From a virus (lineage: Duplodnaviria; Heunggongvirae; Uroviricota; Caudoviricetes): a stretch of 64,000 bases of DNA. Shown here one piece after another: positions 137 through 39,936 of the stretch (the first letter of the stretch is position 1; each line of letters begins with the position of its first letter). The notes beneath the pieces were generated by a model that searched no databases, was not told the origin of the DNA, and saw nothing but the letters and a program-made list of their open reading frames with translations. Where the stretch lies: positions 172,263 through 236,262 of IMG/VR virus record IMGVR_UViG_3300020429_000539. One strand, 5' to 3'. A program made the position numbers and the translations under genes.

Positions 137-143
137 CCACATA
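137..143 (+). promoter_or_regulatory. First of ~60 CCACATA (some NCACATA) elements between 137 and ~39900; putative phage-specific promoter
   Basis: Exactly 25 nt to ATG 169; same spacing at dozens of other sites (see findings). Confidence 0.75.
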
Positions 144-168
144 CTGAAGAGCGGCGGTCTCAGCGTGC

Positions 169-621
169 ATGAACAACGCACGCTTTCTCCAAAACGTTGA
201 TGTCACCGAGGCCAGCCTTGGTTCGACATCTCTCGCCGTCTTCGAGGACCAGCAAGGCTGCGTCTTCGCAGTAGAAGAGTCCTTCGTGGACCAGGTGGGA
301 TGCATCGTCTCTTCGCCGATGCAGCACGGCGAACTGACGCTCCTGGCTGATGCCACCCCGACAGACGACGACCTCGCCGAGGTTGACCGAGAGGCTCTCG
401 CTGAGTTCGGCGAGAACCCCTTTGCTGTTCCTCAGTTCGTTCTGCTGACAATCCTCAACCTGATGGCCAGTGCCCATGAGTCTGCGTGGACGCGGGGTGC
501 CCTGAAGACGGTCCTCGTGCGTCGGGGTTGTTCTGAAGAGCAGTTCGAGGAAGCTCTTCGGCTCGCGACAAGCCAATACCAAGAGACCGTGGCAGGCACT
601 TCTTTGGCGAAGAAGGCGTAA
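169..621 (+). CDS. hypothetical protein
   Basis: 150-aa ORF, start 25 nt after CCACATA, abuts next ATG. Confidence 0.8.
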   Translation: MNNARFLQNVDVTEASLGSTSLAVFEDQQGCVFAVEESFVDQVGCIVSSPMQHGELTLLADATPTDDDLAEVDREALAEFGENPFAVPQFVLLTILNLMASAHESAWTRGALKTVLVRRGCSEEQFEEALRLATSQYQETVAGTSLAKKA

Positions 622-1047
622 ATGGGCTACACCATTACCATCAAGTCTAAAGACGATGCTGAGCGCCAGAAGATGTATGCATTCCTTCTTCGCGAGTTTC
701 GCGAATGGAAAGACATCTTCCCTGTCTACGAAGGCCACATGACAGGCTGCTCAGTGGTTGAAGAGGAAGACGGAAGCGTTGGCTTTCACTACAAGTCTTG
801 GATTGATGCTGCTGAGCGTCGCTACATCTATATGATCATGGTACTGCTTCATGACCTCGGCTTTGGCGATGGCATCTGGCTGTATGACGGCGCGTCTGAC
901 GGCGATGAACAACCTGACAGCTACAGAGAATACAGCGATACCTGGCGTCATTTTGCCAGTTTTTCGTGTCATGATATCGATCAAGTCATTTCCACCATCG
1001 AAGGAGAAGTCGAGCGGCTGAAGCAGTCGTGGGAAAGCCAGTCATGA
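622..1047 (+). CDS. hypothetical protein
   Basis: 141-aa ORF, ATGA overlap with next gene. Confidence 0.8.
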   Translation: MGYTITIKSKDDAERQKMYAFLLREFREWKDIFPVYEGHMTGCSVVEEEDGSVGFHYKSWIDAAERRYIYMIMVLLHDLGFGDGIWLYDGASDGDEQPDSYREYSDTWRHFASFSCHDIDQVISTIEGEVERLKQSWESQS

Positions 1048-1379
1048 ACAAGTTCCTCTATACGTATCGAGGCGTCGAGCTTTTGTGGGAGGTCGTTGCG
1101 GACCATGGTTCGAAAGGCCTGCTGTGCAAGACCATCAGCGGGATTTTCGGTGGGATGCAATATTACTCCTGCAATGCATCAGCGTACTTTTCGCCGTCGC
1201 ATGTCAGCAGGTTGGTCTCTGATGCTGAGTCGCGACGCTTGAGGCGGCTGTCCTCTCATCGAACAAGTGAACTTGGGACTGGGTATACTCTCCTCCATGG
1301 ACGAAAGACCCTATCGGAAGACCAAAAAAGAGAAGACCCCCAAGACGCAGTACATGCTCTACTACAGGACCAAGCCTGA
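1044..1379 (+). CDS. hypothetical protein
   Basis: ATGA-coupled start (MNKFLYTY); 3' part overlaps next ORF so end uncertain. Confidence 0.55.
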   Translation: MNKFLYTYRGVELLWEVVADHGSKGLLCKTISGIFGGMQYYSCNASAYFSPSHVSRLVSDAESRRLRRLSSHRTSELGTGYTLLHGRKTLSEDQKREDPQDAVHALLQDQA

Positions 1380-1542
1380 CTCGAAATACATAGAGTACGG
1401 CCCAATTCACTCGAAGAAGGCTGTGGTACAAACAGTGGCTAGATACAAGGGGATGTTCGGCGAAGAGGCTGCCTACTGGGAAGTCTATGACCCGAACGCG
1501 AGAAAGAAGAGCTATGGCAATCGACGGAGACATCCTGATTGA
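1297..1542 (+). CDS. hypothetical protein
   Basis: Basic ORF MDERPYRK...; start uncertain. Confidence 0.55.
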   Translation: MDERPYRKTKKEKTPKTQYMLYYRTKPDSKYIEYGPIHSKKAVVQTVARYKGMFGEEAAYWEVYDPNARKKSYGNRRRHPD

Positions 1543-1993
1543 ATTCATTCGCGAGTCGAATGCAATCGAGAACATCCATCGTGCGCCTCGCCAGACTGAG
1601 ATCGACATCCACGAGAAGCTTCTCGCGCGAGATGAAATAATCATCGCCGACCTCGTGGAGTTCGTATGGACCGTTCAACCTGGCGCGAACCTGCGCAACA
1701 GGCTCGACATGGATGTCTGGGTTGGGCGTCACACTCCGCCGCCTGGCGGACCGGATGTTCAAGAGATGCTTGACGGTTTGCTTCAGCGCATCTCGCTCCG
1801 TGACATCTCTCCTTGGGAGGCTCATGCCACCTACGAGACGATTCATCCCTTCATGGACGGTAATGGTCGTAGCGGACGGGCACTCTGGCTGTGGCATTCT
1901 ATCCGTGATGGCGAGTTTGTTCCAGGTCGTTCGTTTCTACAGCATTGGTATTACTCAACCCTTGACCGATTCCGACTGCCGAAAAGGATTTGA
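1514..1993 (+). CDS. fic: Fic/Doc family protein
   Basis: Fic motif HPFMDGNGRSGR; N-terminal ESNAIE. Confidence 0.9.
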   Translation: MAIDGDILIEFIRESNAIENIHRAPRQTEIDIHEKLLARDEIIIADLVEFVWTVQPGANLRNRLDMDVWVGRHTPPPGGPDVQEMLDGLLQRISLRDISPWEAHATYETIHPFMDGNGRSGRALWLWHSIRDGEFVPGRSFLQHWYYSTLDRFRLPKRI

Positions 1994-1995
1994 GC

Positions 1996-2286
1996 ATGAA
2001 GTTTGATTGCGAGAAATGCGGAGATGTCGATTCTGTCATCGTTGATGGCTACGGCTTTGGTGACCGGCTGCTCGAAGGCGTGATGTTCAAGGTCTTCTAC
2101 AAGGATGGAAAGCTTGTTGCTGAAGTCACGCCTGATAGCGCTGACTACTTCAATGACCTGAACACGAAGAAATGGCTCAAGGCCTGTGTTCAGCATGTCG
2201 AGGATATGGAGGATGATGTCGAGGGGCAATGCCCTTGCTGCAACGAAGACATCTACCTTCGACCCGACAATAAGCCTCGCGACTGA
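1996..2286 (+). CDS. Zn-ribbon hypothetical protein
   Basis: CEKC ... CPCC pairs. Confidence 0.75.
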   Translation: MKFDCEKCGDVDSVIVDGYGFGDRLLEGVMFKVFYKDGKLVAEVTPDSADYFNDLNTKKWLKACVQHVEDMEDDVEGQCPCCNEDIYLRPDNKPRD

Positions 2287-2326
2287 AAAGAATCTGACTT
2301 TTTGGAGTGAATTACTGAAGGAGTTC

Positions 2327-3113: not shown

Positions 3114-3148
3114 CTTCCACATAGCCTGAAGCTGCCGCGTCATGCAAC

Positions 3149-3532
3149 ATGACGGATGAGGCGTTCATCTCTTTCTTGACGGCTCTGCGAGACCGCTGCG
3201 GCGCGAAGCTGTGCGGCTCGTGGGCTGAAGGCACCCAGGACATGAAGCCGGGGATGTTCTCGGACATCGACCTCGTGGTCCGCTACACAGACCGAGAAGA
3301 AGGCAAAACACGACCCATCGAGGAGGCCATCAAGGTCTTCGACGAGTTCGGGGTTCCGTGGGACAGCCATATCGTCGGTCAGATTTCCTCTCCGCGCGAT
3401 TTGCAGACGCTCCCTCGGCCTGTAGAAGTGATGGAGTCGTCGTGGATTGCACCCAAACCTGAATACAAGCCCGAGGTCAATGTCTTTGGCGTAACGTTTC
3501 AATCGTTTCGTCGTTCGTGGAGACAGAGATGA
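3149..3532 (+). CDS. minimal nucleotidyltransferase (Pol beta superfamily)
   Basis: LCGSWAEG...SDIDLVV motif (hG[GS]x9-13DxD). Confidence 0.75.
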   Translation: MTDEAFISFLTALRDRCGAKLCGSWAEGTQDMKPGMFSDIDLVVRYTDREEGKTRPIEEAIKVFDEFGVPWDSHIVGQISSPRDLQTLPRPVEVMESSWIAPKPEYKPEVNVFGVTFQSFRRSWRQR

Positions 3533-4447: not shown

Positions 4448-4563
4448 TTTTAGGGGAGCCTCGTGGAACAGGCACTTCGCGGAAGATGGGTGCTATCTCT
4501 CCGCCCACATACGATTCCGCGACAACCCCATGAGGCGTGGACGATCGGAACCTCCTGCTCCTA

Positions 4564-4634
4564 GGGGCGTTGGTTTACAGAGATGCACGATGCTTCAATC
4601 GTCGTGTGAGGGGTTGCAATCCCCCTCCGTCCCA
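4564..4634 (+). tRNA. atypical tRNA with UCA anticodon (opal suppressor/Trp-like)
   Basis: Acceptor ggggcg/cgtccc, cgatg-ctTCAat-cgtcg, T arm agggg-ttgcaatc-cccct (8-nt loop), weak D arm. Confidence 0.55.
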
Positions 4635-4637
4635 TTT

Positions 4638-4760
4638 GCGAAAGTAGCTCAACTGGTAGAGCATCTTGCCCCATGATGGAGCGTACGCGAAGTCACAGCC
4701 AGTCCGGAACGGCTGCGGGGATCAACAAGAAGGTTAGGGGTTCGACTCCCTTCTTTCGCT
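4638..4760 (+). tRNA. Gly-like tRNA with 50-nt structured insertion in anticodon loop
   Basis: gcgaaag/ctttcgc acceptor, U73, perfect D and T arms, anticodon stem tcttg/caaga enclosing 57 nt. Confidence 0.8.
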
Positions 4761-4767
4761 TTCAGGA

Positions 4768-4836
4768 CTAGGGATGGTGTAATGGTAACACAGTCCTTCG
4801 GGACAGTCTATCGAGGTTCGATTCCTCGGCCCAAGG
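4768..4836 (+). ncRNA. tRNA-like RNA whose anticodon loop is a cUUCGg tetraloop
   Basis: D arm gtgt-aatggta-acac, gtcc-TTCG-ggac, T arm cgagg-ttcgatt-cctcg; acceptor has 2 mismatches. Confidence 0.7.
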
Positions 4837-4843
4837 TCCGTAG

Positions 4844-4981
4844 CTGCTGACAAGGCCCGCAAGGGAGGGTAACAGGAACCACCCGGAGTTGAAGCCAATG
4901 TTCCAAAGCCTCTTCGGACGCGGAGAGGCAATCTGGTCAGGCGACTGACTGGAACGGCAAAGAGGCACTCGCGGTCAGCAG
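4844..4981 (+). ncRNA. multibranched structured RNA, unknown class
   Basis: ctgctgac/gtcagcag closing helix; gttcca/tggaac; gcctct/agaggc; GCAA and GCGA tetraloops; no ORF. Confidence 0.65.
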
Positions 4982-4983
4982 AG

Positions 4984-5013
4984 GCCCTCGTCTTTCGGGA
5001 CGGGGGCTTTTTT
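4984..5013 (+). terminator. intrinsic terminator of the RNA island
   Basis: gccctcgtc-tttcgg-gacgggggc-TTTTTT. Confidence 0.85.
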
Positions 5014-5143
5014 CGTGTCCCTGCTTGATTCCGCCGAGATGCTCCTGTACCGTTACCACATACGTTGCAGGACTGGCTTCATGGGCCGTGAGACGGGACG
5101 TTCCCTCTTACACAGTCAACCGCCAGCATCAAGGAGATACATC

Positions 5144-5731
5144 ATGGCGAAGAAGGCATCCACCAAGAAGACCGGCTCGAAGGCCAAACGGACTCGTCGC
5201 GTGCGGTCCACCACCCGCTCGTCCATCATCCCCGTGTGGAGCGAGGGTCGCGAGGGCAGCAACAAGAACACGACCAAGCACAACCCCGAGGCGGGCAACC
5301 CCGATTCGCTCGTGGCGCACGTCAAGGAGTTCTTCGGCACGGTCGCCAAGCGGTTCGAGGCCAACAAGGGCTACGGTCGCCAGCACATCAACAGCAACGG
5401 CGTGGTCCATCCTGACGCGGCCCTGACCAAGAGCAATCGCGCCTGCACCAAGACGGCGATTCAGTTCATCGAGGTTCTCGCGCAGCGTGCTGCCCTCGCC
5501 GGCAACAAGGAAGCCGAGGCCATTTTCGAGGGCTCGCTGGCGACGCCCGCCGAGGCCAAGAAGTTCCTCGCCGACATCGCCAAGTTCGCCCGCGAACGCG
5601 CCAACCAGATCAAGGCCGATGAGAGCCAGGCGATTCTCGATGACATCGCCAAGGACATCGGCCTCGAAGACGGCTCGTCGCTCGTGCCCGCGTCGAAGGC
5701 CAAGGCCAAGCCGAAGGCCAAGGCTGGGTGA
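5144..5731 (+). CDS. Lys/Arg/Ala-rich putative nucleic-acid-binding protein
   Basis: SD AAGGAG, MAKKASTKKTGSKAKRTRRVR N-tail, KAKAKPKAKAG C-tail, strongly biased codons. Confidence 0.85.
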   Translation: MAKKASTKKTGSKAKRTRRVRSTTRSSIIPVWSEGREGSNKNTTKHNPEAGNPDSLVAHVKEFFGTVAKRFEANKGYGRQHINSNGVVHPDAALTKSNRACTKTAIQFIEVLAQRAALAGNKEAEAIFEGSLATPAEAKKFLADIAKFARERANQIKADESQAILDDIAKDIGLEDGSSLVPASKAKAKPKAKAG

Positions 5732-5757
5732 CAGGCACCTGATTCCCCTCACAAAAG

Positions 5758-5786
5758 GCCGCGCCTGTAATGGGCGTGGCTTTTTT
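5758..5786 (+). terminator. intrinsic terminator
   Basis: gccgcgcc/gggcgtggc hairpin + T6. Confidence 0.75.
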
Positions 5787-5823
5787 CTATCCACATACGA
5801 AGATCCTGCCGATACTATTAGGT

Positions 5824-6168
5824 ATGAACGCAGACGACATTCGTAGCGCGGTCGATGAGAAGTGGTCCCCAGAGGCACGGCTGCTCATCGAGAAGGCAGC
5901 ATCAACGGTTCACGAACACGCGGAAGCCCGTGTGGAACGTGAGCGAGAACTGATTGACGCGCTCGATGTTGCTCTGAAGGAAGCGACGACTCCGTGGTAT
6001 CTGAGTCTGTGGCCGAGCAAGAAAAGGTTCCGAGCGCTTGCGCATGCGTGCAGGATCGGAGATGAAGCTGAAGAAGGAATGATGGCGTTCGCCGAGGAAC
6101 AGGGAATCCATGTCGAGGGAACGGGATATCCGGCTGATGAAGAAGGTAGCCCGCGAACAGCGTCTTGA
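5824..6168 (+). CDS. hypothetical protein
   Basis: ATG 26 nt after CCACATA 5791. Confidence 0.75.
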   Translation: MNADDIRSAVDEKWSPEARLLIEKAASTVHEHAEARVERERELIDALDVALKEATTPWYLSLWPSKKRFRALAHACRIGDEAEEGMMAFAEEQGIHVEGTGYPADEEGSPRTAS

Positions 6169-6243
6169 ACGCGAACGCGAGCATGGCCGTCTCCGTGCCA
6201 AGTCATTCGGAGGCAAACCCTCGCCCAGGGCTGACCGTCGCAA

Positions 6244-6954
6244 ATGGAAACAGAACCGCGACGACCTATGAACAGACCAAGACTCAAACTCACAATCGAA
6301 GTCCCATTTGATGCGCCGTTGAGCGGCGAGACTGTCGAGGAGAAGACTGACAAACTCCTCGATGAGGTCCGTCGTGTTTTGCCTTCCGCCGAGATGTTGG
6401 GTGCAAGGGTCGAGGCAACGACTCTGTGGGAAAAGAACGAGGCGTCTGATTCGGACGACGTTTTGCGTCTGATCGATACGGCCTTTCTTCGTCTCGTGGC
6501 TATCGCTGACATCATCGGGGTAGACACGGCAGACGTGCGACGTGACCTGACTGTGGTTCCTCACCTTGATAATCACACTTCCAAGCCCGACCCGGGTGAG
6601 GCCCACGTTGTCCGGGTGGGCAGGCTCCTTCTTTACCGCTCCTTGTTCAACGGCGTGCGAGTATGGGTCGTGAGCGGTCAGCGTCGAGATGTCGAGCCAG
6701 GCACTCATGGTGGAGATGCTTTTCTGTCTGAACAGGTACAGGTTTGCAGAGATACGGAGTTCAGGGGTGTGCTGTCAGTTCTGCTCAATGCGCTGTCCAG
6801 CGAGAAGATCAACAGCCATTTTCGCGCGCAAGTTGACGAGTCTGAATACCTGATTCAAGTCGCGGAAGATTCCTCGGCGGCGCAGACCAAGGATTGTCAA
6901 GGGTTTATGAAGGGCGGCGAAAAAAGTCGCCCAAAAACAACCCCAAGCGGTTGA
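6244..6954 (+). CDS. hypothetical protein
   Basis: 236-aa ORF. Confidence 0.7.
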   Translation: METEPRRPMNRPRLKLTIEVPFDAPLSGETVEEKTDKLLDEVRRVLPSAEMLGARVEATTLWEKNEASDSDDVLRLIDTAFLRLVAIADIIGVDTADVRRDLTVVPHLDNHTSKPDPGEAHVVRVGRLLLYRSLFNGVRVWVVSGQRRDVEPGTHGGDAFLSEQVQVCRDTEFRGVLSVLLNALSSEKINSHFRAQVDESEYLIQVAEDSSAAQTKDCQGFMKGGEKSRPKTTPSG

Positions 6955-6979
6955 CGGTCGCGAGGGAGCGGTTTATACT
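6951..6979 (+). promoter_or_regulatory. sigma70-type promoter for the large ncRNA
   Basis: TTGACG-N17-TATACT. Confidence 0.8.
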
Positions 6980-6985
6980 TCCCCC

Positions 6986-8130
6986 ACGAGCCAAGGAAAC
7001 GAGGCACGCAACTGAGAGCTAACCAAGGAAACGAGGAAAGCTCAAAGTCGAATCGAAACTAAGGTCGCAAGACTAAGTTAAGATTCATCATCTTCAAACC
7101 AGAAATGGGATGAAGATGATTAGGAAAGCCAAGCTGCGAGGCCCATACTTTCCGACATATGCTGCGACCCAACCCTGCTTGCAGAAAGGGTCAAAAGCGC
7201 TAGGCTGAGCCAAATGCCAACCGGAAGGCGGGCATGTAACTCAAGACGCTCAACTCTTAGGTCTTGACCTGATTCTTGAGCGAGCGAGGAAGCGAAAGCA
7301 AAACTCGCCTAGAGCAGAAGGGCTTGAAACAGCCCCAAGCATGTGACCGAACCCACGCTCGACGCAGCGATGCGTAGAGAAATGGACGGTAACTGCTCAG
7401 CCAGTTTCGGCTGACTGAGTGGTTTAGAGCGGACTGAAAGGAAAGCTCGACTGCTAGAGGATGGCAAGCGGAATGCCCTATTCCAAAAGCAGATAGGCAA
7501 GCGCCGACGCGGATACCCGTCTTCGACCGCTGAGGATACTAGCCTATATTCTGCTGAGACGTAAAAAGCTCAGTAGGATTTAGACCAACCCGAAAGGGAG
7601 GTCGAGCCAGAAGGAAAGTCCATGCTTGGGCATGACGGCTACCTCTGGTATGTCAAAGCGAAGGACAGTTCCCAAGACTAGTCCCCAAGCTCACTGGCAT
7701 CAACCTGCTGGGTCTGAAAAAGCCCAGTAGGTTTTAGACCAAGGACGACCTGTAAAGGAAGCACCTAGTCGAGTAGACGGAGAGTCTCGAAGGCAACGGA
7801 GAGACAAACCGACATCTGGAGACTAAACTCATCGGTGACGATGAGGTAAACCTCCAAGGCAACATGAGTAACCTGTTCCCGCTTCGGCGAGAAAAAGATG
7901 CTCACGAGCCTCCAAGGAAGCGAAAGCAACACTTGGGATGGCGGAGAGGGCTTAGCCTCGGCAGCCCAAACCGATGCGTTCAAGAAGCAGGTCAGTAGAA
8001 ATACTGACACGAACCATTGAACAGGCAGCCCTGCGGGTAAAACCGTAGGGCTGTCTTCGTTTAACGACACAGGCACCTGACCTGTCCCAAAAACATTTCG
8101 GATGGCTTGCGGGTGAAATGTGGACGGCGT
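6986..8130 (+). ncRNA. ~1.1-kb highly structured RNA with RNase P-like core signatures in its 3' half
   Basis: No credible ORF; many GNRA/UUCG hairpins; duplicated modules with compensatory changes; GAAGGAAAGTCCATGC (7610), GGTAAACC (7845), CAAAAAC..ATGGCTT (8088-8108). Confidence 0.75.
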
Positions 8131-8217
8131 ATGATGGCGTCTTCCACATACGATTTCGCTACGAGATCGTGTGGCAGTCGCATCTTGTTCCGAGAACCCT
8201 TTTACGGAGAACCCCAA

Positions 8218-8730
8218 ATGGCTGATGAGCAGAACACCACGCCCGAGACCGAGGCCACCGAATCCACTGGACGGGCCACCGTCCCCGAGATCAACTCCAT
8301 CGAGGAACTCGGCGCGTACGTCGCCGAGTTGGAGGCCAACGAGACCGAGGGGCCGAGCGCCCGTGGCTACACCATCAACGGCGGCCTCCGTGCCGTGTCG
8401 CCGCTGTACTCCCTCTCGCCGAACGTCCTCCTCTCGATGGCGGGCTGCATCAACACGGCGCTCGCCACCCACATCAGCGAGGGAACCGAGGGCGCGCAGG
8501 AGGCTCTCGACCTCTCGATGGCGCACGCTCAGAACGCCGTCACCGTGACGCGCCACACCGCGCAGTTCAACAAGTTCCTCGACATGGCGATCGACCTCGG
8601 CTACGCCCCCGATGGCGCGAACACCGAGGCCCTGACCCACGAGCAGCAGGTCGCCACCGTCGATGCCTTCCTCGCCTCGCAGAAGGGCAAGGTCAACTCG
8701 TGGGCGGCGTGGCAGAAGGCCAACGCCTGA
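8218..8730 (+). CDS. hypothetical protein with highly biased codon usage
   Basis: SD GGAGA, CCACATA at 8144, terminator follows. Confidence 0.85.
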   Translation: MADEQNTTPETEATESTGRATVPEINSIEELGAYVAELEANETEGPSARGYTINGGLRAVSPLYSLSPNVLLSMAGCINTALATHISEGTEGAQEALDLSMAHAQNAVTVTRHTAQFNKFLDMAIDLGYAPDGANTEALTHEQQVATVDAFLASQKGKVNSWAAWQKANA

Positions 8731-8748
8731 ATCACGAACTCCCCCTCC

Positions 8749-8784
8749 GCAGCGTCGCCCTTTACGGGGCGGCGTTGCTTTTCA
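8749..8784 (+). terminator. intrinsic terminator
   Basis: gcagcgtcgccc/ggggcggcgttgc + T-tract. Confidence 0.8.
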
Positions 8785-8803
8785 TTTTCTTCGAGGATAT
8801 AAT
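8775..8803 (+). promoter_or_regulatory. sigma70 promoter giving a probably leaderless mRNA
   Basis: TTGCTT-N17-TATAAT, 6 nt before ATG 8810. Confidence 0.7.
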
Positions 8804-8809
8804 CTAGCT

Positions 8810-9628: not shown

Positions 9629-9661
9629 CCCACATACGTTCCGAGCTTCGTGCTGAAGAGC

Positions 9662-10249: not shown

Positions 10250-10282
10250 CCCACATACGTTTCGCGAAGAAAGACGACGACC

Positions 10283-11909: not shown

Positions 11910-11919
11910 GAGACGCAAT

Positions 11920-29574: not shown

Positions 29575-29586
29575 CGGAAGGAGCGC

Positions 29587-30339: not shown

Positions 30340-30417
30340 CCCAAACCCCCGCAAGGGGGATATCATAGAAAAGATGGGTGCCTGACCACATACGAAAACT
30401 CGCATCGCCCGATGACC

Positions 30418-31026: not shown

Positions 31027-31241
31027 CCCTCAAGGAAATACTCGAAGCCCTCGACGGCTACGGGCTCATCCTGACAGATGACGAACTCATCGAAGAAAGG
31101 TTGAAGGAACTGGGTATCGACATCGCCAAGCCCGTGCAGTAAGCCAATAGAGCCCAGAAATGGGTTCTTTTCCGCGCACAAAAGATGGGTGCTAGCCACA
31201 TACTACTGCGTGCTGCTATCATTCACTGATTGGAGGCAACG

Positions 31242-31538
31242 ATGCAAGTAAAGCAGGCCGTGGATTTCGCTGAGCAGTTTCTACGCAAGGTCGTCGGACC
31301 TGGCATGTTGCACCGAATGGCCCCCGAGCCGTGTCCCGAGGGGACTTTCATCGGGCAGTATGACAGCAAGGCGCAACTCTACAGCGTCGCCATCAAGCCG
31401 ACGCACGACAGCCGTGGCACGCCCTACATCTCTGTTCACATTCAGACCGCCGACGATGCCGAGAAGCGCAGCGGCGACTGGCGGATTTACAGCGAGGCGG
31501 GCGATTGGGATTTGCCGCGCCGTCCGCTTTGCCCTTGA
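31242..31538 (+). CDS. hypothetical protein
   Basis: SD GGAGG. Confidence 0.75.
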   Translation: MQVKQAVDFAEQFLRKVVGPGMLHRMAPEPCPEGTFIGQYDSKAQLYSVAIKPTHDSRGTPYISVHIQTADDAEKRSGDWRIYSEAGDWDLPRRPLCP

Positions 31539-31586
31539 CCCACATACGAATACCTGCCCGTCCCGTAGCATGAAAGGAGCAACGAC

Positions 31587-31934
31587 ATGCGAACCGCTTA
31601 CCACTACAACGGGCACCTCATCGACATCTGGGAGGACCGCGAGGACGATAACATCAAACTGTTTCATGATGTGTTCCCGCCCGGCGCGTGGACCGGCAAG
31701 GGCGAAGTCACGGGCCGCGACTGCCGCGCCTGCAAGATGCTCGACCTATCACCGTACGGCACGAACGACCTCACGCTCTGCGCCGCGATGATCGACCTCG
31801 GATTCCCGACCCGCGAGGACATTCTGCCGAACGGCAGCATCGGCCCGCTCCACCGCGAGGATGTGGAAACCCTCTGGCGGGCGAAGTTCGGCGACAAGCC
31901 GATGCCGACGATGGACGACCTCACCCAACTCTAA
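31587..31934 (+). CDS. hypothetical protein
   Basis: SD GAAAGGAG at predicted +1. Confidence 0.8.
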   Translation: MRTAYHYNGHLIDIWEDREDDNIKLFHDVFPPGAWTGKGEVTGRDCRACKMLDLSPYGTNDLTLCAAMIDLGFPTREDILPNGSIGPLHREDVETLWRAKFGDKPMPTMDDLTQL

Positions 31935-32037
31935 CCAAACGGAGCCCCCGCAAGGGGGATACTTCATAGAAGATGGGTGCATAGTCGTTGACCACATAGC
32001 ATAGTTGCGCCTCGTCATGCGATGAAAGGAGCAACAC

Positions 32038-32397
32038 ATGGCAAAGTTTCAGCGAACCCCGCAGCCCCACCACCGCGAAGTCACCGAGGCCGAGATGGAC
32101 CGTCTCGTGGACTGGATCGCGGAAATGAATCGACGGTATTACGAGGCCAACTTCCCGCGCCTCACGCCGCCGACCTTCCGCTACCAGATGGGTCCGACGA
32201 ACATCAAGGTGATCGTAGTCGGCGACGACGGCAAGGACCGCAGCGTGTGGTGCTTCGTCGAGAAGGCGAGCGGCGCGATCATGAAGGCCGCCGGATGGAA
32301 GGCCCCCGAGCCCAAGCGGTACGAGCGCGGAAATGTCCACCTGCCCGAGGGTTGGGCCAAGTGGCTCACCCCCAACGGTCCCCAGTATCTCAACTGA
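32038..32397 (+). CDS. conserved phage protein (SV..FV.K..G.I.KAA.WKAP family)
   Basis: Motif familiar from myovirus hypotheticals; SD GAAAGGAG. Confidence 0.75.
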   Translation: MAKFQRTPQPHHREVTEAEMDRLVDWIAEMNRRYYEANFPRLTPPTFRYQMGPTNIKVIVVGDDGKDRSVWCFVEKASGAIMKAAGWKAPEPKRYERGNVHLPEGWAKWLTPNGPQYLN

Positions 32398-32653
32398 GAC
32401 CAGGCACTCCCCATTCGTGGGGAGTTTCTTTCGCGCGCACAAAAGATGGGTGCAACCCCACATAGCTACCAGCTTCGGCGTCTTCAAGCATGGACACCGA
32501 TAGCCTCAAGTTTGAAGTCTTCCAGCTTCGGCAGCGAATCGAGCGAATCGTCCGGCGTCGGGGGATTGTCGAGTCGCACATAGCTATCCGCGCGGTCGCC
32601 ATTCTTAGCGTTCGCGTTCGGCTGCTTGAGGTTCAGATCAGAAAGGGCAACAC

Positions 32654-32986
32654 ATGAAAAGCGTACACGGCAAGCTCGGCAACATGCGGAAGGCGGTTAG
32701 CTGGACCGTTTACCCCAACAGCTACAACGAGAGCAAGAGCGAGACAGCGGGCGCGCGGACCATCTTCATCCAGAGCGACAAACGAGCCTGCGCTATCAAT
32801 GTCGAGACCGGCAAGGGTATGCTCAGCAACGGGCGCGGACACCCCGGATTCCATTCGACGATGCCCGCGCTCGGGGCCAAGGAGGTCGATGTCCCGCGCG
32901 AGTTCATCGACGAATGCCTGAAAGCTCAGCCCAAGAGCGGCGACACCATCGGACGCGCGGGCACCGCCGTTGTTCGCATCGCATAA
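32654..32986 (+). CDS. hypothetical protein
   Basis: SD GAAAGGG. Confidence 0.75.
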   Translation: MKSVHGKLGNMRKAVSWTVYPNSYNESKSETAGARTIFIQSDKRACAINVETGKGMLSNGRGHPGFHSTMPALGAKEVDVPREFIDECLKAQPKSGDTIGRAGTAVVRIA

Positions 32987-33080
32987 CCAAACGCCCCACA
33001 AGGGGCAACTGCTACAAAAGATGGGTGCTAGAACACATACGGTAGAAGCGGGCGACCATGCCATGAAAGGAAGGCAAACC

Positions 33081-33506
33081 ATGACCGCAACCACGACAGC
33101 ATTCAAGTACCGGGCCGTTTATCTTTCCGCCGACACGGAAGAGGACAAGTGGGGCGACGGATGCCAGCCCGGCACGCGCTGCTGCAAGATGGACCAGAAA
33201 ATCAGTGTCGAGTCCGATTCGCTCAAGGGCCTGCTTGAAACTCTCGCGCAAGAGTGGGGGTTCAGCGAAGAACCCAGCGACGGCTGGATCATGATGCGTA
33301 ACCATGACGACACGGTGCGCCTCATCTATCAGCAGAACGAGAACGCGGACGGGCACCCCCTGACCGACAGCGAGCGCGAACGCTGGAAGAAGAACGAGAT
33401 CAAGGTCTGGCTCGCGGATTATTCGTTCACGGTCGAGAAGGCCCCCGCCGAGACATTCATCATCGGCGACGACGAGGCCGAGAGCATCGGGCTGGAAGTT
33501 AGTTGA
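33081..33506 (+). CDS. hypothetical protein
   Basis: SD GAAAGGAAGG. Confidence 0.8.
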   Translation: MTATTTAFKYRAVYLSADTEEDKWGDGCQPGTRCCKMDQKISVESDSLKGLLETLAQEWGFSEEPSDGWIMMRNHDDTVRLIYQQNENADGHPLTDSERERWKKNEIKVWLADYSFTVEKAPAETFIIGDDEAESIGLEVS

Positions 33507-33588
33507 CGCCAACTCTCCCCATAAGGGGAGGGCCTCGCAAAAGATGGGTGCTACTCGCACATAGCACCGCGCGACAGCCCCGTAGGGC

Positions 33589-33702
33589 ATGAACCTACTC
33601 ATGCTCATCATAAGCATCATCATCCTCATGGTCAAGTACTGGTACATTTCCGTGCCCGTGCTTGGCATCATCGCATTCCTCTGGGCGAAGGCGCAGGACT
33701 GA
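33589..33702 (+). CDS. 37-aa membrane micro-protein (not in ORF track)
   Basis: MNLLMLIISIIILMVKYWYISVPVLGIIAFLWAKAQD; ATG 25 nt after GCACATA. Confidence 0.7.
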   Translation: MNLLMLIISIIILMVKYWYISVPVLGIIAFLWAKAQD

Positions 33703-33750
33703 CCACATAGGTTAGTTTCAGGCACCCGTGGCATGAAAGGAAGGCAAACC

Positions 33751-34155
33751 ATGACACGCGACGACCTGACCCCATTCGCCCGAGGATACATTCAAGGGCT
33801 GCTCGCCACCAGTCTCGATGACGACCAGGAGCCGCTGGACGCCAACTACGATATCGAGGACATTCACCCCGATTCGCTTGAGAAGATCGCCGACGATTGC
33901 GCCAAGTTCGTCGCGGCGAATGAATCGCACTACGCCGATGCCGAGAATCTTTCCTGCTCGGACGGCATCTGGAAGCCCGCCGAATCCGCTGGCCTTGATT
34001 TCTGGCTGACGCGCAACGGCCACGGAAGCGGATTCTGGGACCCCGACCGCAAGCGGCACTATGGCGAGGCGAACGCGGAAGCGATGAACGCCTACAGCGA
34101 AGCCGCCGGCGGATGCGACGCCTACATCGGCGATGATGGCAAGGTCCACATCTGA
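33751..34155 (+). CDS. conserved phage protein
   Basis: AGLDFWLTRNGHGSGFWD motif. Confidence 0.8.
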   Translation: MTRDDLTPFARGYIQGLLATSLDDDQEPLDANYDIEDIHPDSLEKIADDCAKFVAANESHYADAENLSCSDGIWKPAESAGLDFWLTRNGHGSGFWDPDRKRHYGEANAEAMNAYSEAAGGCDAYIGDDGKVHI

Positions 34156-34306
34156 TCCTTTCCCCCTCCCCGCCGCAAGGCGGGTTGTAGGGGTGCATAG
34201 ATAAAGATGGGTGCTATCACTGTTTGGCATGCGCAAGTTAGTAGTTGCTATTTTCGTGCCACATAGTTTATATTCTGCGCGCCGAGGATTGAAAGGAAGG
34301 CAACCC

Positions 34307-34819
34307 ATGACAATCACAGCCGATAGCAACACGATTTTCCACGCCAAGAAGATCAGCCGCTCGCGGTGGGGGTTCGAGTTTCATCCGAATCTCACCGAGG
34401 TCGAGCGCGTCCGTTGCGTCGTGGAGTTCAACTACAAGCGCGGCACGGTATTCGTGACGACCGCCGAGAATCGAGACCTGAAAGCCCCCGGCGACGACTA
34501 CTACGAGTGGGACGCCATCGTGGAGGCGGGCAAGTCCTACATGGTCGGTTCGGATGTTCCGACCGATTCGTTCCTGAAGTCTCATTCGTCGTACATCCCC
34601 GCAGACCACTGGCTCGCGTTCGCCGTTGATTGGGCGTTCAAGAATCCCACGCAGCGGCTCATCGTCACCAAGCACAGCGGCCAGCCGCTCCACTACGAGG
34701 TCTACAAGCGCGGCGACTATGTTGAGATCGCGCTGCCCCACCACGGGCAAGGCGGAGAGAAGCACTGGGCGGTCCACGCCGACAGCCCCCGCAAGAAACT
34801 GCTCATCAATGTTGATTGA
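34307..34819 (+). CDS. hypothetical protein
   Basis: SD GAAAGGAAGG. Confidence 0.8.
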   Translation: MTITADSNTIFHAKKISRSRWGFEFHPNLTEVERVRCVVEFNYKRGTVFVTTAENRDLKAPGDDYYEWDAIVEAGKSYMVGSDVPTDSFLKSHSSYIPADHWLAFAVDWAFKNPTQRLIVTKHSGQPLHYEVYKRGDYVEIALPHHGQGGEKHWAVHADSPRKKLLINVD

Positions 34820-34923
34820 CGGGCACCTGCCCGACAGCCCCGCAAGGGGCAAGCCCTATAGAAGATGGGTGCAAGGCCACATAGCATAGTTGTTGCGGCT
34901 CGTCGATTATAAGGAGCAACACA

Positions 34924-35163
34924 ATGGACGCCCAGAACATCAGCATGATTCAGCACCACGCCCAGACTCTTCTTCGCGAATCGGGCTATAACGCCTCGAT
35001 TCTCAAGGGCGAGGGACGCAAGGGCGAGGATTATAGCCGCGCCATGGGGCTCTGGAAGGATTCGTGCAAACTCGTCCGCGAAGTGTTCCCCGAGGATGAG
35101 GCCGAGCGCATGATCGAAGCCACCTGGAACCCGAATAAGGTTGCGTTCCTGGAGAAGGCCTAA
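34924..35163 (+). CDS. hypothetical protein
   Basis: SD AAGGAG. Confidence 0.75.
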   Translation: MDAQNISMIQHHAQTLLRESGYNASILKGEGRKGEDYSRAMGLWKDSCKLVREVFPEDEAERMIEATWNPNKVAFLEKA

Positions 35164-35195
35164 CCACATACAGGCACCGCGCGAGGACGATGAAC

Positions 35196-35375
35196 ATGAG
35201 CAACACGAAGCAAACCAAGACCGATGGACCGACTCTTTGCTGCCCGTTTGGGCGCACGCCCGGCTACCCCTGCCGCATCTGTCGAGGCTCAGCCGTAACA
35301 GCCTACAACGGCATGAGCCGCGAGGAGCGCGACAAGCGTGACGCGCAAGCCCGATTCTCACAGTCCTGCAAGTAA
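35196..35375 (+). CDS. small Cys-containing protein
   Basis: ATG 25 nt after CCACATA 35164. Confidence 0.7.
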   Translation: MSNTKQTKTDGPTLCCPFGRTPGYPCRICRGSAVTAYNGMSREERDKRDAQARFSQSCK

Positions 35376-35459
35376 CCCCGAAAGGGGAACGACGCGAAAG
35401 ATGGGTGCAAGGCCACATAGGTTAGTTGTCCGCTCTCGTGCGATGAAAGGACAGCAACC

Positions 35460-35819
35460 ATGAAGACCCTGAAACTGAAAGACTTTCCGACTCTCGCGGC
35501 CCAAGTCAAGCGGTGGGTGCCCGGCTACCGTAAGCACAGCGTTATGGTGGCGGTCGCCGAGCGCGAAACCCCGTTCGGGTGGTGGTGGGACGAGGGCAGC
35601 AAGAGCGACTATGCTACGGCCCGCATCGGCGGCAGCGGCACGACTCCCTGGTACCCTCCGCAATACCCCGAGACGAAGGCCCAGCCGATTCCGACCGGCG
35701 GCGAGACTGTCGTGGTCGAGACCGGGGTATTCTGCGGCAAGCCCGCGACGATGCAACTCACCATCCACCCCAACGACCTCGCCCGCCTGGGCCTGAGCCC
35801 CGAGGACACGAAGCGATAA
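35460..35819 (+). CDS. hypothetical protein
   Basis: cassette gene, SD GAAAGGA. Confidence 0.8.
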   Translation: MKTLKLKDFPTLAAQVKRWVPGYRKHSVMVAVAERETPFGWWWDEGSKSDYATARIGGSGTTPWYPPQYPETKAQPIPTGGETVVVETGVFCGKPATMQLTIHPNDLARLGLSPEDTKR

Positions 35820-35914
35820 GCAAGGAGACCCCCGAAAGGGGGATATCATAGAAAAGATGGGTGCTAACGCACATAGGTTAGTTTGTTCGTGCCGAGGAAT
35901 GAAAGGAGCCAACA

Positions 35915-36124
35915 ATGGCATGGAACAAACTCCCCAAGTCTCGACCCGCGAAGCCCAAGCTCGACAAGTTTGACCTCGAAGCCGAGGCCGAGGGCAACGC
36001 AATCCGCACCGGCCCCACCGTCATCGGGCCCGTGGGCAAGCGCATCGCCCGCACGCGACGCGAACACGACCGAGGCAACGCCATCGCCGAGCGCGCCGCC
36101 ACCCGCCACATCCAAGTTGCCTAA
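35915..36124 (+). CDS. small basic protein
   Basis: cassette gene, SD GAAAGGAG. Confidence 0.75.
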   Translation: MAWNKLPKSRPAKPKLDKFDLEAEAEGNAIRTGPTVIGPVGKRIARTRREHDRGNAIAERAATRHIQVA

Positions 36125-36221
36125 TCGGGCACCCTCCCCAAGAGGGAGGCGTCGCATAAAAGATGGGTGCTAGAACACATAGGTTAGTTTCCTTTGCCCG
36201 TGGGTTGAAAGGAAGCCAACC

Positions 36222-36470
36222 ATGACCGAAATCGCTTACCCCCGTCGAACGCTCCAGAGTCTTTCACCGTTCCGCGAAATCATCGCCGTGGAGCCCCACA
36301 TGACGGCCATCCCCGCGTACTCGGACAAGCCGACCATGACGCTCGACGAAATGCGGACGCACGCCAAGAAGAATGGCGGAGGCACGATCATGCAGCAAGA
36401 TGATTCGATGCTCCCGCCGTTCGTGCTGACCAAGTACGACGCCGAGGGCAATGTCGCCAGCGTTTCCTAA
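36222..36470 (+). CDS. hypothetical protein
   Basis: cassette gene. Confidence 0.75.
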   Translation: MTEIAYPRRTLQSLSPFREIIAVEPHMTAIPAYSDKPTMTLDEMRTHAKKNGGGTIMQQDDSMLPPFVLTKYDAEGNVASVS

Positions 36471-36639
36471 ACTACCAGGCACCTCCCCTTGAGAAAGGGA
36501 GGATGCCTCGCAAAAGATGGGTGCTAAGTTATCAACCGCTATCAATCTTTATCCCACATAGGATAAGTCTTTGATATCGTGGGACAGTTGAGCGAGTTGC
36601 TCAAGTCAGAAACGGAAACCCTTTTTCAAGGAGATTCAT

Positions 36640-36858
36640 ATGTCCGCCAACAGCATCGAGATCGCCCTGCTCCACCCCCGCGCCGCCAAGCCCCTCGGCA
36701 AGATCAACCGCGTGCCGACCGTGGCCAGCGACGGCTCGATGACCGTCAACTACAAGGGCCGCAAGTTCTCGGTCCTCAACCTCGACGGCAAGAGCGTCCT
36801 GTACGTCAACCGCCCGCTCGGCTCCGAATACAAACAGCGCGAGGCCGTGGCCGCGTGA
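36640..36858 (+). CDS. hypothetical protein
   Basis: SD AAGGAG, terminator after. Confidence 0.75.
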   Translation: MSANSIEIALLHPRAAKPLGKINRVPTVASDGSMTVNYKGRKFSVLNLDGKSVLYVNRPLGSEYKQREAVAA

Positions 36859-36988
36859 CCACACAGCAAACCGTCCCCTCCCGGTGTTTGGACTCCGCCG
36901 GGAGGGGCGGTTTTTCCGCGCACAGAAGATGGGTGCTAACGCACATACGATGAACTCCGCCGCCCGTGGGTTGAAAGGAAACAAACCC

Positions 36989-37255
36989 ATGAACATCGGA
37001 AACCTCATCGTTCAGACCATCGACCGCTCGCGCCTCTGCATCGACGGCGAGATCGACACGGGCGAGAACAACGGTTCGGGCGAAATCATCGTCCGCGCAA
37101 CAGGCGCGACGCCCATCACGGCCCGCTCATTCCAGTTTACGGGCGTGACCGTCGAGACAAGCGGCGACTACGCCACATGGAGCGAGGACAACCTTAAGGA
37201 CGAGGCCGCGCAGATGCTCGCCCGCGACTACACCGAAGAAGTGGACGAGGACTAA
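36989..37255 (+). CDS. hypothetical protein
   Basis: cassette gene. Confidence 0.75.
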   Translation: MNIGNLIVQTIDRSRLCIDGEIDTGENNGSGEIIVRATGATPITARSFQFTGVTVETSGDYATWSEDNLKDEAAQMLARDYTEEVDED

Positions 37256-37304
37256 CCCACATAGGTTAGTTTCAGGCACCCGTGGGTTGAAAGGAACCCA
37301 AGCC

Positions 37305-37532
37305 ATGACCGAAACCAAGAATGAAACCGTCTACGATGCCCTGAAGAACGCGGGCTGCAAGTTGGACAATCACGAATCGGACCTCTATGTAGAGGACACC
37401 GCGACGGCCCGCGAGATCATCGCCCGATTCGACCTCAAGGCCAAGCCGTTCCGAAGCCAGATCGACCAGGCCATGTGGCTCGAACTCCCCTTCATGCACC
37501 AGCCGTTCTGGGACCGCAAGGCGAGGGGATAA
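37305..37532 (+). CDS. hypothetical protein (DNHESDLYV motif)
   Basis: cassette gene. Confidence 0.75.
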   Translation: MTETKNETVYDALKNAGCKLDNHESDLYVEDTATAREIIARFDLKAKPFRSQIDQAMWLELPFMHQPFWDRKARG

Positions 37533-37685
37533 CGGACCTTTCAGACCGCTGACCCGCCCGAGCGCAACCGCGAGGCGTTCCACCCCGAGACGCCTGGCGG
37601 GCGCGGTCTTTAATATCGCACAGAAGATGGGTGCATGAACACATAGCATAGTCCGCCATCCCCGAGCGATGAAAGGAAGCAAACC

Positions 37686-37886
37686 ATGAGCGACCCACGC
37701 ACGACCCCCGAGCAGCCCTTCGATGACTTCGACACGCAGAGGCAGGTGGAAGAAGAGTATCCCGACCCGCCCTATGATGGCGCGGACGAGGACGGGCTCA
37801 CGGACGTTGAAGCCGACGCCATGACCCTCCGCGACTGCGGCATGGGCACGGACGAGGACTATGGCTTCGCGGCGGACATTATCTAA
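37686..37886 (+). CDS. small acidic protein
   Basis: cassette gene. Confidence 0.75.
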   Translation: MSDPRTTPEQPFDDFDTQRQVEEEYPDPPYDGADEDGLTDVEADAMTLRDCGMGTDEDYGFAADII

Positions 37887-37981
37887 CCTCAACACCCCGC
37901 AAGGGGGGCAGCATAGAAAAGATGGGTGCCTGACCACATACGAAATACTGCCAGTCCCGAGCGATGAAAGGAACCCAAGCC

Positions 37982-38260
37982 ATGAACATCAAGCCCGTAG
38001 CCAAGCGATTCTATGATGACCTCATGCTCGACTCGATGCCGTCGTCGCTCGCCGTTCTCGTGGACTTCGGATTCAATCACGCCCACCCGCAGAAGCGGCT
38101 TTATGAGGCCTATCAGAAGGGAGCCCGCGCGGGCACCTTCACGCTCGAAGAAATGAGCGAAGCCGTTGGCGACGGTCCCGCCCTGACCCGACTCATTCAG
38201 CGCGTCGATTCGTCCCTCGAAGTTGTGACCGACTACGACTTCCTGGACGAGCCGATGTAA
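37982..38260 (+). CDS. hypothetical protein
   Basis: cassette gene. Confidence 0.75.
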   Translation: MNIKPVAKRFYDDLMLDSMPSSLAVLVDFGFNHAHPQKRLYEAYQKGARAGTFTLEEMSEAVGDGPALTRLIQRVDSSLEVVTDYDFLDEPM

Positions 38261-38374
38261 ACCACCCAAGCCCCCTCCACCGAGAGGGGAGCGGTCATAT
38301 AAAAGATGGGTGCATAACTCACATTCCCACATACAAACTTTTCCGCGCGCCGAGAAATGAAAGGACGCGGAACT

Positions 38375-38737
38375 ATGAAAGCCTCAGAACTCGAAAAGCA
38401 ACTGCCGCCCATCGCCCGTGGGCTCTACAACCTGAAACGGTGCTTTGGCTCGAACGCTACCATCGGCATCGTGCTAGGACCCGGCTGTAGGACCGGCCAC
38501 TATCGAACCCTCGCCGAACTTGAGGACGCGGGCCACATCCCACCAGGCTACAGGCACCTAGACCCGTATCTGGCAGCCGTTCCGACCGTCTACACATGCA
38601 CGACGGAAGAAGTCGAACTCATCCCCAGCCGCAACCCAGAAGGCCCAGAGTGCCCGTGGGTCGAGGCAAACCGCAGAGCAGCGGAAGCCCGCGCACGAGT
38701 CGCCCGCAAGCGAGAAATCGCCCGCCTCAACACATAG
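38375..38737 (+). CDS. hypothetical protein
   Basis: cassette gene. Confidence 0.75.
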   Translation: MKASELEKQLPPIARGLYNLKRCFGSNATIGIVLGPGCRTGHYRTLAELEDAGHIPPGYRHLDPYLAAVPTVYTCTTEEVELIPSRNPEGPECPWVEANRRAAEARARVARKREIARLNT

Positions 38738-38777
38738 GATAATCTCACGCGCCCGAGGCATGAAAGGACGGGCAACT

Positions 38778-39236
38778 ATGACCGAGGCAGAAACCAAAAT
38801 CCTCCCCAACCCCTCAATCGTGCAAATCAGAGAGGACTTCAGCCGCGAATGGCTGCGCACGAACCGAATCGACCGCGTGATGGGGCAGTACGCCTACGAT
38901 GCTGCAAAGCAGGTCCACTGCTGCGAAATCACGCCGAGTTATGAACTCACCTTCATCCGATACGAGGCCGTCTACGCCGAGGGATACGAGCCCGACGACG
39001 AGACCCGCGAGCATATCGAGGTCGAACTGACCGAGGCCAGCGCAATCGACCAGGGCGTCATCTATATCCACTGCCGCTCGGTCGATGCAATCGCCGAGGT
39101 CGCCGAACTGTCAGACATCCCAACGGGCGAGCCGTGGCGCATGGCTTGGAATAAGGAGGACGAGAGGCACGACCGCGACGACTCGGACGAGCAGGTCGAA
39201 GAGGTCCGCGAATACTTCAACTGCAATCACCACTGA
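38778..39236 (+). CDS. hypothetical protein
   Basis: cassette gene. Confidence 0.75.
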   Translation: MTEAETKILPNPSIVQIREDFSREWLRTNRIDRVMGQYAYDAAKQVHCCEITPSYELTFIRYEAVYAEGYEPDDETREHIEVELTEASAIDQGVIYIHCRSVDAIAEVAELSDIPTGEPWRMAWNKEDERHDRDDSDEQVEEVREYFNCNHH

Positions 39237-39336
39237 CCAACCCCTCCCCCTTGAGAAAGGGGAGGCCACGCACAGAAGATGGGTGCTAGAACACATACGA
39301 TATCTTTCCGCGCACGAGACGAGAAGGGAGCCGACA

Positions 39337-39588
39337 ATGAGAATCACGATCGATACCGACGAGTCATACGCCCCAGGCTGCTTCCTGCTCTGCCAGGTCG
39401 ATGACTCGGACAACTGGGATACGCGCGACGAATCGCGTACCATCCTCGTCCAGCGAGATACAGACTTTCCCGCGATGGCCCGAAACTTCGGCTGGACCGG
39501 CGAGGACTCGGATATCGAGCAAGCCGTGGACTATCTTCACGATACCGCGTGCGGAGAGATCATCGACGACCCCGGCTATTTCAACTGA
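39337..39588 (+). CDS. hypothetical protein
   Basis: SD GAAGGGAG. Confidence 0.75.
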   Translation: MRITIDTDESYAPGCFLLCQVDDSDNWDTRDESRTILVQRDTDFPAMARNFGWTGEDSDIEQAVDYLHDTACGEIIDDPGYFN

Positions 39589-39635
39589 CCCACATAGGTT
39601 AGTTTCTGCCGCCCGTGGCATGAAAGGAGTCAACA

Positions 39636-39833
39636 ATGACTTGGGAAGAATTCGTCAAGGCGTGCAACAAGGCCGTGGAGCGCAAGATCGGGATGCATCG
39701 GGACGACCTCCCCGATACCATCGACCTGGCGGACTACTGGGACGAGTCAATGAGCCGCGAGGACTGCGAGCGCGCCGCCAAGGAATTCGCCGACGACCTC
39801 GTGAGCGAGCAAATGGAAGAAATGGGATTCTGA
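39636..39833 (+). CDS. small acidic protein
   Basis: SD GAAAGGAG. Confidence 0.75.
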   Translation: MTWEEFVKACNKAVERKIGMHRDDLPDTIDLADYWDESMSREDCERAAKEFADDLVSEQMEEMGF

Positions 39834-39936
39834 ACGGAGCCCCCGAAAGGGGGATATCATGCAAAAGATGGGTGCTACTCGCTCTCGCTCCCACATAGTT
39901 TATCATTCGCCGCCCGTGGGTCGAAAGGAGCAAACA

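Follow-up and report, generated by a model that had tools for sequence, protein, structure and literature searches.

A strand-specific CCACATA array in a marine megaphage is very probably a private promoter class with a fixed distance to the RNA start

What is the function of a seven-base element, CCACATA, that is repeated many times on a single strand of a phage genome? The element is found in a stretch of 64,000 nucleotides, below called the window, which corresponds to positions 172263-236262 of a single IMG/VR virus record. This record has 488,051 bp and many tRNAs, and comes from the sea. An earlier note on the window had proposed that CCACATA is the upstream box of a promoter. Here we argue that the array is very probably a phage-specific promoter class in which transcription starts 26 nt past the box. 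It also seems probable, although we hold this with clearly less confidence, that these promoters are read by the host core polymerase together with one of four sigma-70-family factors encoded by the phage.

The window holds 56 + strand copies of CCACATA, which lie between 137 and 39897, and a single - strand copy at 58106. By chance 3.3 copies (standard deviation 1.8) would be expected, and 57 copies were reached in none of 100 shuffles. The claim of about 60 copies, all on the + strand of an array that ends before 40 kb, agrees well with these numbers. A search of the full genome, which the earlier note had suggested, places 61 + strand copies in one 50-kb block (genome 160-212 kb, 1.5 expected). 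Outside this block the counts are at chance level: 12 (+) and 14 (-) against 15 and 19 expected.

The array extends from 161.8 to 212.2 kb of the genome and begins about 10.4 kb ahead of the window. Eleven additional sites in this block, of the form [AG]CACATA, are followed by the features also seen downstream of CCACATA. When all variants are scored, 67 [ACG]CACATA sites show at least three of four downstream features, and 62 of these lie in the window (137..39923, +). Plausible extra copies outside the block are located at genome 326194 (+) and at 6329, 45277, 2996 and 40595 (-).

The distance from the box to what follows it is strikingly constant. Of the 72 [ACG]CACATA sites of the block, 27 have an ATG behind a spacer of exactly 25 nt, and every other offset is used at most 11 times. 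A leader of the GAARGGA type begins at spacer 25 in 22 of these sites and at spacer 28 in one. Over the 50 sites that can be interpreted the spacer length is constant in 49, and all coordinates for which the exact spacing had been reported were recovered.

A position matrix was built over 61 sites, with +1 defined as the base after the 25-nt spacer. The conserved positions are:

-25: S (G or C), 61/61
-24: G or C, 53/61
-9: Y (pyrimidine), 47/61
-8: C, 52/61
-7: R (purine), 54/61
-6: W (A or T), 49/61
-1: Y, 57/61
+1: R, 56/61

Both the C at -8 and the pyrimidine-purine initiator of the original proposal are clearly visible here. When the count is limited to 30 sites whose spacers do not resemble one another, C-8 is present in 23 and Y-1 in 26. 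The promoter would then consist of CCACATA(S) at -32..-25, YCRW at -9..-6 with its near-invariant C-8, and a Y(-1)/R(+1) initiator.

The sequence that begins at +1 is not of a single kind. A start codon is placed exactly there in 28 of the 67 sites (27 ATG, 1 GTG), for which leaderless messages are predicted, and for 19 of the 27 leaderless ATGs there is no in-frame alternative upstream start. A Shine-Dalgarno-led start at +14 to +19 is found in about 25-27 of the 67 sites, eight have longer leaders, and a few have no open reading frame (ORF). With a start 26 bp past the last base of the box, the array would produce about 28 leaderless mRNAs and about 25 mRNAs that start with GAAAGGAG and have a leader of 14-19 nt. 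The roughly 70 copies would each serve one small gene of this GC-rich, hyperplastic block, or in a few cases a small RNA or a tRNA. One distance thus fits an AUG, a ribosome-binding leader and RNA genes, and these have only the RNA 5' end in common, which argues against a translational signal.

The 55 proteins encoded downstream show no paralogy among them, and nearly all are orphans, with four matches to domains of unknown function (DUF). Gene duplication as the origin of the repeat can therefore be ruled out. Because the proteins are unrelated, the motif is part of the regulatory DNA and did not spread by the copying of genes.

The block also differs from the rest of the genome in composition. 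Its GC content is 55-60%, compared with 44-50% elsewhere, and the GC content of third codon positions is 0.62 against 0.47. The orphan genes of the block may suit a different tRNA pool, of the host or of the phage, or they may differ in origin.

Next, the array can be compared with that of a relative. The sole clear relative that emerged from a pattern scan is G001, a 104-kb IMG/VR fragment with 66-86% nucleotide identity to the window; it is collinear with 24.1-34.2 kb and then from 41 kb onward. In 12 orthologous promoter pairs the CACATA, the C at -8 and the 25-nt spacing are each kept in 12 of 12, while the remaining spacer positions show about 60% identity on average. Two IMG/VR pattern scans for further relatives with such an array returned only G001 and chance singletons.

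Individual units of the window illustrate the variety of starts (window coordinates and strand):

137..171, +: leaderless-type promoter; box at 137-143; a 150-aa ORF has the A of its ATG at the predicted +1, 169
3117..3151, +: promoter directly 3' of tRNA-Leu (3032-3114); leaderless ATG at 3149
4505..4537, +: promoter without a downstream ORF; predicted +1 at 4537, 27 nt ahead of a tRNA-like gene at 4564-4634
20225..20257, +: promoter of a small RNA; predicted +1 at 20257, where base pairing of a structured small RNA begins
20739..20788, +: Shine-Dalgarno-type unit; +1 at 20771, the G of GAAAGGAG, and ATG at 20786 (+15)
24573..24607, +: leaderless promoter with ATG at 24605; the orthologue in G001 (1089) has the same spacing, although its spacer sequence has diverged
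31540..31589, +: Shine-Dalgarno-type unit; +1 at 31572, ATG at 31587; kept in G001 at 5508
39291..39339, +: ACACATA variant; predicted +1 at 39323, where an RNA contig starts
39590..39638, +: Shine-Dalgarno-type unit; predicted +1 at 39622, where an RNA contig starts
39891..39939, +: final promoter of the array; +1 at 39923, ATG at 39937

The structured small RNA spans 20257-20450 and has a minimum free energy of -80.1 kcal/mol (z -2.3). The tRNA-like gene at 4564-4634 is followed by an insert-bearing tRNA (4638-4760), and just past the final promoter the GC content drops from about 59% to about 52%. Far from the block, a tRNA with a CUA anticodon (genome 40480-40552, -) starts 11 nt past the predicted +1 of the copy at 40595 (-). 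This amber-reading tRNA (locus L159:381-453) is classified as tRNA-Pyl by ARAGORN, and may hint at TAG suppression during infection.

To compare the predicted starts with RNA we used four marine metatranscriptome assemblies, in which coverage is low and patchy and the depth insufficient for gene ranking or termination. An error-free contig of run X18 covers 39323-39824 and a contig of run X20 covers 39622-39822; the left end of each is exactly a predicted +1. The stretch of 20 kb contains 45 predicted +1 positions, and for the 23 contig left ends listed about 0.05 such coincidences are expected by chance. In general the promoter reading is well supported, in that one ruler leads to three kinds of RNA 5' end, the initiator is Y-1/R+1, the arrangement is conserved in G001, and two RNA contigs begin at +1.

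Two other features of the RNA data should be mentioned. A contig of run X18 (20026-20257) has its end precisely on the predicted +1 of the small-RNA promoter. Further, the apparent depth at window 33598-33634 is very high, with bin means of 1154 in X19 and 18 in X21. The contigs listed there are 31 nt long and contain three mismatches apiece, and the X19 matches are mostly 90-95% alike. This depth is probably due to unrelated low-complexity RNA that matches the ATC-rich start of a 37-aa hydrophobic ORF.

The promoter is part of a larger module that the earlier note overlooked: a cassette of hairpin, AAGATGGGTGC box and promoter. Between hairpin and promoter stands a second repeated box with the consensus CNYAYARAAGATGGGTGCWA, found in the window over 4485..40516 (+). 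Its GATGGGTGC core has 36 copies in the block, all on the + strand, and 31 of the 36 lie in the window. The hairpin ahead of it is GC-rich, often with a C5/G5 stem and a GNRA loop, and mostly without a T-run. The distance from the second box to the CACATA box varies from 4 to 45 nt (mostly 4-16 nt), which argues that the second box is outside the core promoter. It could be the site of a regulator, a 3'-end signal or a recombination point. Each promoter is usually preceded by the hairpin of the previous gene and the AAGATGGGTGC box. A complete junction, kept in G001 at 4228, is this one:

30346..30420, +: complete cassette junction; hairpin CCCCC-GCAA-GGGGG at 30346-30360, AAGATGGGTGC at 30371-30381, CCACATA at 30386-30392, C-8 at 30410, leaderless ATG at 30418

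When the window is aligned with G001, homology stops at the box 28821-28827 and restarts 20 nt ahead of the box at 29899. Another box (window 24894, G001 1413) is shared and then followed by different genes in each phage. Judged from these alignments, the composite cassettes appear to be points where related phages exchanged or lost genes.

Which enzyme, then, would read these promoters? The earlier note held that they imply a phage sigma factor or a phage RNA polymerase, and had found neither in the window. For the sigma factor this expectation is borne out elsewhere in the genome: four sigma-70-family genes with regions 2 and 4 lie at genome 96.6, 134.6, 259.5 and 458.1 kb, all outside the block (259520-260371, 134552-135265, 458139-458933 and 96583-97383 on the minus strand). 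The set comprises a FliA/WhiG-like protein of 283 aa, a divergent FliA-like one of 237 aa, a SigH-like one of 264 aa and a divergent one of 266 aa. Neither a box nor a sigma-70-like promoter is evident upstream of the four genes. Searches for relatives based on the sigma factors gave two more fragments, both without the promoter block, and none for the divergent 237-aa factor.

The polymerase half of the expectation fared less well. Neither the Rpb1/Rpb2 domains (PF00562, PF00623) nor the T7-type polymerase (PF00940) has a match in the genome, the latter search being made without a positive control, and the catalytic motif D-x-D-G-D is absent from all long ORFs. The 15 largest ORFs were also scanned for a cryptic polymerase; they are structural-like or without a match, and nothing in them is polymerase-like. 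It has been reported that jumbo phages without a polymerase of their own typically encode sigma factors (PMC7824862), and four sigma genes with no detectable polymerase is the pattern of that group.

The presence of sigma factors points to a bacterial host. No TBP or TFIIB domain was found in the genome, so that an archaeal/eukaryotic promoter of the TATA/TFB type, with a -30 box, a -8 position and an initiator, does not apply. Pairs of sigma-70-type hexamers show no enrichment in the block (8 against 6.5 expected), while they are enriched in the regions adjoining it (31 against 20.1). The host enzyme therefore looks conventional, and the CCACATA class appears to be private to the phage. A good sigma-70-type promoter, TTGACG-N17-TATACT, is located at window 6950-6979, and judged by such sites the phage may use host-type promoters as well.

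A search for other stereotyped promoter classes, which might serve the other sigma factors, gave only tRNA T-arms and a 12-bp terminal tandem repeat as k-mers enriched outside the block. As the remaining sigma factors have no other stereotyped motif, the CCACATA motif cannot be assigned to one of the four by elimination.

In the mechanism that we consider here, a helix-turn-helix (HTH) of the sigma region-4 type would read the box as duplex DNA, while the C-8 element, 16 bp further on, would be recognised by region 2. We infer three parts of this scheme: the start site, for which the RNA support is weak, the dependence on a phage sigma factor, and the identity of that factor.

The geometry was described in the earlier note as novel, which is overstated. 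CCACATA at -32..-26 is separated by 16 nt from YCRW at -9..-6, and this spacing between the two elements is ordinary: it is within the norm of about 16-18 bp, as in the gp47 promoters of phage 7-11 (PMC8948821). Unusual is the shift of 4-5 bp towards the inferred +1. In the sigma-70 family the -10 element lies at about -12..-7, with the start 6-9 bp further on, and the -35 element at about -35..-30; here the conserved C occupies -8 and the box has its centre at -29. Sigma-54 elements (GG at -24 and GC at -12; TGGCAC-N5-TTGC) are absent from the position matrix. The T4 late (gp55) or -10-only type does not fit either, as the invariant element is at -32..-26 and there is one conserved base near -10.

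If the inferred +1 is true, the contacts (centred at -29, and at -8) would be 4-5 bp nearer the active site than has been described for holoenzymes of the sigma-70 family. This could mean a phage sigma factor or a sigma-activator pair that forms an unusually short open complex, or an undetected non-canonical phage polymerase with a TATA/Inr-like layout in a bacterium; we consider such a departure rather unlikely.

The closest parallels help to place the array. The sigma factor gp47 of Salmonella phage 7-11 reads experimentally defined promoters of the form GTAAtg-N16-aCTA, with starts 6-9 bp downstream (PMC8948821). Both systems have a private upstream box and a very short element 16 bp further on, with a phage sigma that has region 4 and uses the host core; for the array this combination of host core and phage sigma is predicted. 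The differences are that phage 7-11 has 8 promoters compared with about 70 here, and a start 6-9 nt after the proximal element compared with 5. Further, the upstream box of the array is invariant, half of its mRNAs are predicted to be leaderless, and its cognate sigma is not assigned.

Promoters of sigma-28 (FliA) have the form TAAA-N15-GCCGATAA; in the fliC promoter the -35 element is at -36..-30 and the -10 element at -15..-8, and A-11 is flipped out in the open complex (PMC12784957). The array, written as CATA-N15-rYCRWGrr, shares the spacing and a CCGA-like core, and two of the phage sigma factors are FliA/WhiG-like. In contrast to sigma-28, its -35 sequence is different, the TAA half of the -10 element is absent, and the promoter is about 5 bp nearer +1 (-32..-26 and -10..-3). 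The strict consensus TAAA-N15-GCCGATA has one site in the whole genome.

T4 middle promoters, about 60 in number, carry a MotA box at -35..-26, centred at -30, and use sigma-70 remodelled by AsiA; they serve prereplicative genes (PMC2988021). A phage-specific box near -30 in place of the -35 element is common to both systems. However, T4 middle promoters need a -10 TAnnnT at -12..-7 as well as MotA and AsiA, while the array has no A/T conservation there and no homologues of the two proteins: neither MotA (PF09158) nor AsiA (PF09010) has a match in the genome, in a search that included no T4-type control genome.

The cassettes resemble the PeSL cassettes of T4-like phages, in which a stem-loop and a promoter stand between small orphan genes in a hyperplastic region (PMC2839356, PMC4122927). 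Homology between relatives breaks at the modules in both, here between G001 and the window. The PeSL promoter is of the host sigma-70 early type, unlike that of the array, which has in addition the conserved AAGATGGGTGC box between hairpin and promoter and is far larger, at about 50 kb.

Several observations weigh against the proposed phage-sigma promoters. None of the four sigma factors is linked to the CCACATA motif, and many large ORFs lack annotation, so a cryptic polymerase could be among them. Both elements are 4-5 bp nearer the inferred +1 than in characterised sigma-28 and sigma-70 promoters (PMC12784957), and there are 5 nt from YCRW to +1, compared with 6-9 in phage 7-11 (PMC8948821). 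In the position matrix the region -12..-1 is GC-rich and not AT-rich. A need for a phage-made sigma would exclude immediate-early expression, yet such arrays are typical of early regions. Finally, RNA contigs bridge promoters at 22693-22906, 34116-34345 and 37141-37454; the start sites are deduced rather than mapped by triphosphate ends, and assembled contigs are no proof of a start.

Other explanations can be considered. In a variant of T4 sigma appropriation, a separate phage protein would bind the box near -29 and recruit a host or phage sigma holoenzyme that reads the short proximal element only. The box, at -32..-26, is indeed nearly at the position of the MotA box (-35..-26; PMC2988021), the proximal element in the position matrix is low in information, and HTH-rich proteins are encoded near the array (window 47213-48184, -, and a three-HTH protein from about 63265). 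With no MotA or AsiA homologue found in the genome, no box-binding protein identified and the required -10 hexamer TAnnnT absent, an activator of this type has in our view a small though appreciable chance of being correct. Even less probable is an unrecognised phage RNA polymerase, single-subunit or of a non-canonical two-barrel type and possibly carried in the virion. It would account for the odd distances of the elements to +1, which are off the norms of sigma-70, sigma-28 and extracytoplasmic function (ECF) sigma factors by 4-5 bp (PMC12784957), and for the resemblance of the array to an early region; it could be hidden among several ORFs without a family match (900-2769 aa), and the negative T7-type search had no positive control. 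However, there is no match to Rpb1, Rpb2 or the T7-type enzyme and no D-x-D-G-D in the long ORFs, and the four sigma genes favour the host core enzyme. To our knowledge the promoters of phage polymerases are contiguous and near +1, and none is split with a box at -30. Promoters of the N4 virion polymerase, presented as a hairpin, can be rejected: a stem of at least 5 bp surrounds only 8 of the 72 boxes, compared with 3.4 expected, so that stems at the box scarcely exceed the control.

The block could also be read by the host holoenzyme without any phage factor, if it mimics promoters of a host alternative sigma. Orphan genes of the takeover type, in an array that looks early, would gain from not needing a phage protein, and other gene classes could be the targets of the phage sigma factors. 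Seventy near-identical copies resemble a private code, however, and no characterised alternative sigma consensus fits, neither sigma-54 nor sigma-28; we give mimicry slightly less credit still than a phage polymerase. Least credible of all is a signal at the RNA level, in which read-through transcripts would be cut 25 nt past CCACAUA, between Y and R, to make leaderless or Shine-Dalgarno-first 5' ends. Contig 5' ends do not separate primary from processed ends, some RNA contigs span promoters and most hairpins have no T-run, all of which processing would accommodate. Against it speak the hairpin upstream of the box in each unit and the lack of a general structure around the box. Further, Y-1/R+1 is a universal preference of transcription initiation, and we know of no nuclease that measures 25 nt from an unstructured heptamer.

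The promoter array of this phage joins three known ideas, private phage-sigma promoters, leaderless mRNAs and PeSL-like cassettes, in a form that is new and on an unusually large scale. In the literature CCACATA was not found as a phage promoter, the only matches being chance ones to primers. The array gives an uncultivated marine megaphage a sharply defined and testable regulon, with about 70 near-identical promoters, a ruler precise to one base and four candidate sigma factors. It would be a large-scale case of the production of leaderless mRNAs, here predicted, in a phage, and would extend promoter-terminator cassettes as exchange points for orphan genes beyond the T4 group. Should the start sites be confirmed, their displaced geometry would be instructive for how sigma factors set the start site. 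With the motif, start codons and transcription units can be assigned to about 70 genes that otherwise could not be annotated.

The surroundings of the array contain a few further features. The three-HTH protein mentioned above has 283 aa (window 63265-64000, extending past the window end; genome 235527-236378), with repeats that resemble sigma region 4 and a weak match to PF08281; it is a candidate DNA-binding regulator beside the array and might be the protein that recognises AAGATGGGTGC. Downstream of the array, window 42388-62866 holds a glycosyltransferase cluster (GT29 sialyltransferase-like, DXD type) and a GDSL esterase, and also encodes large proteins with chitobiase/Fn3-associated C-terminal domains.

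At the ends of the genome, the "direct terminal repeat" of the record is a 12-bp tandem repeat, (CTGTAGGTGGTT)n, at genome 1-130 and 487930-488051. Because the same tandem repeat is found at both ends, the call that the genome is complete rests on this repeat and not on a unique terminal sequence.

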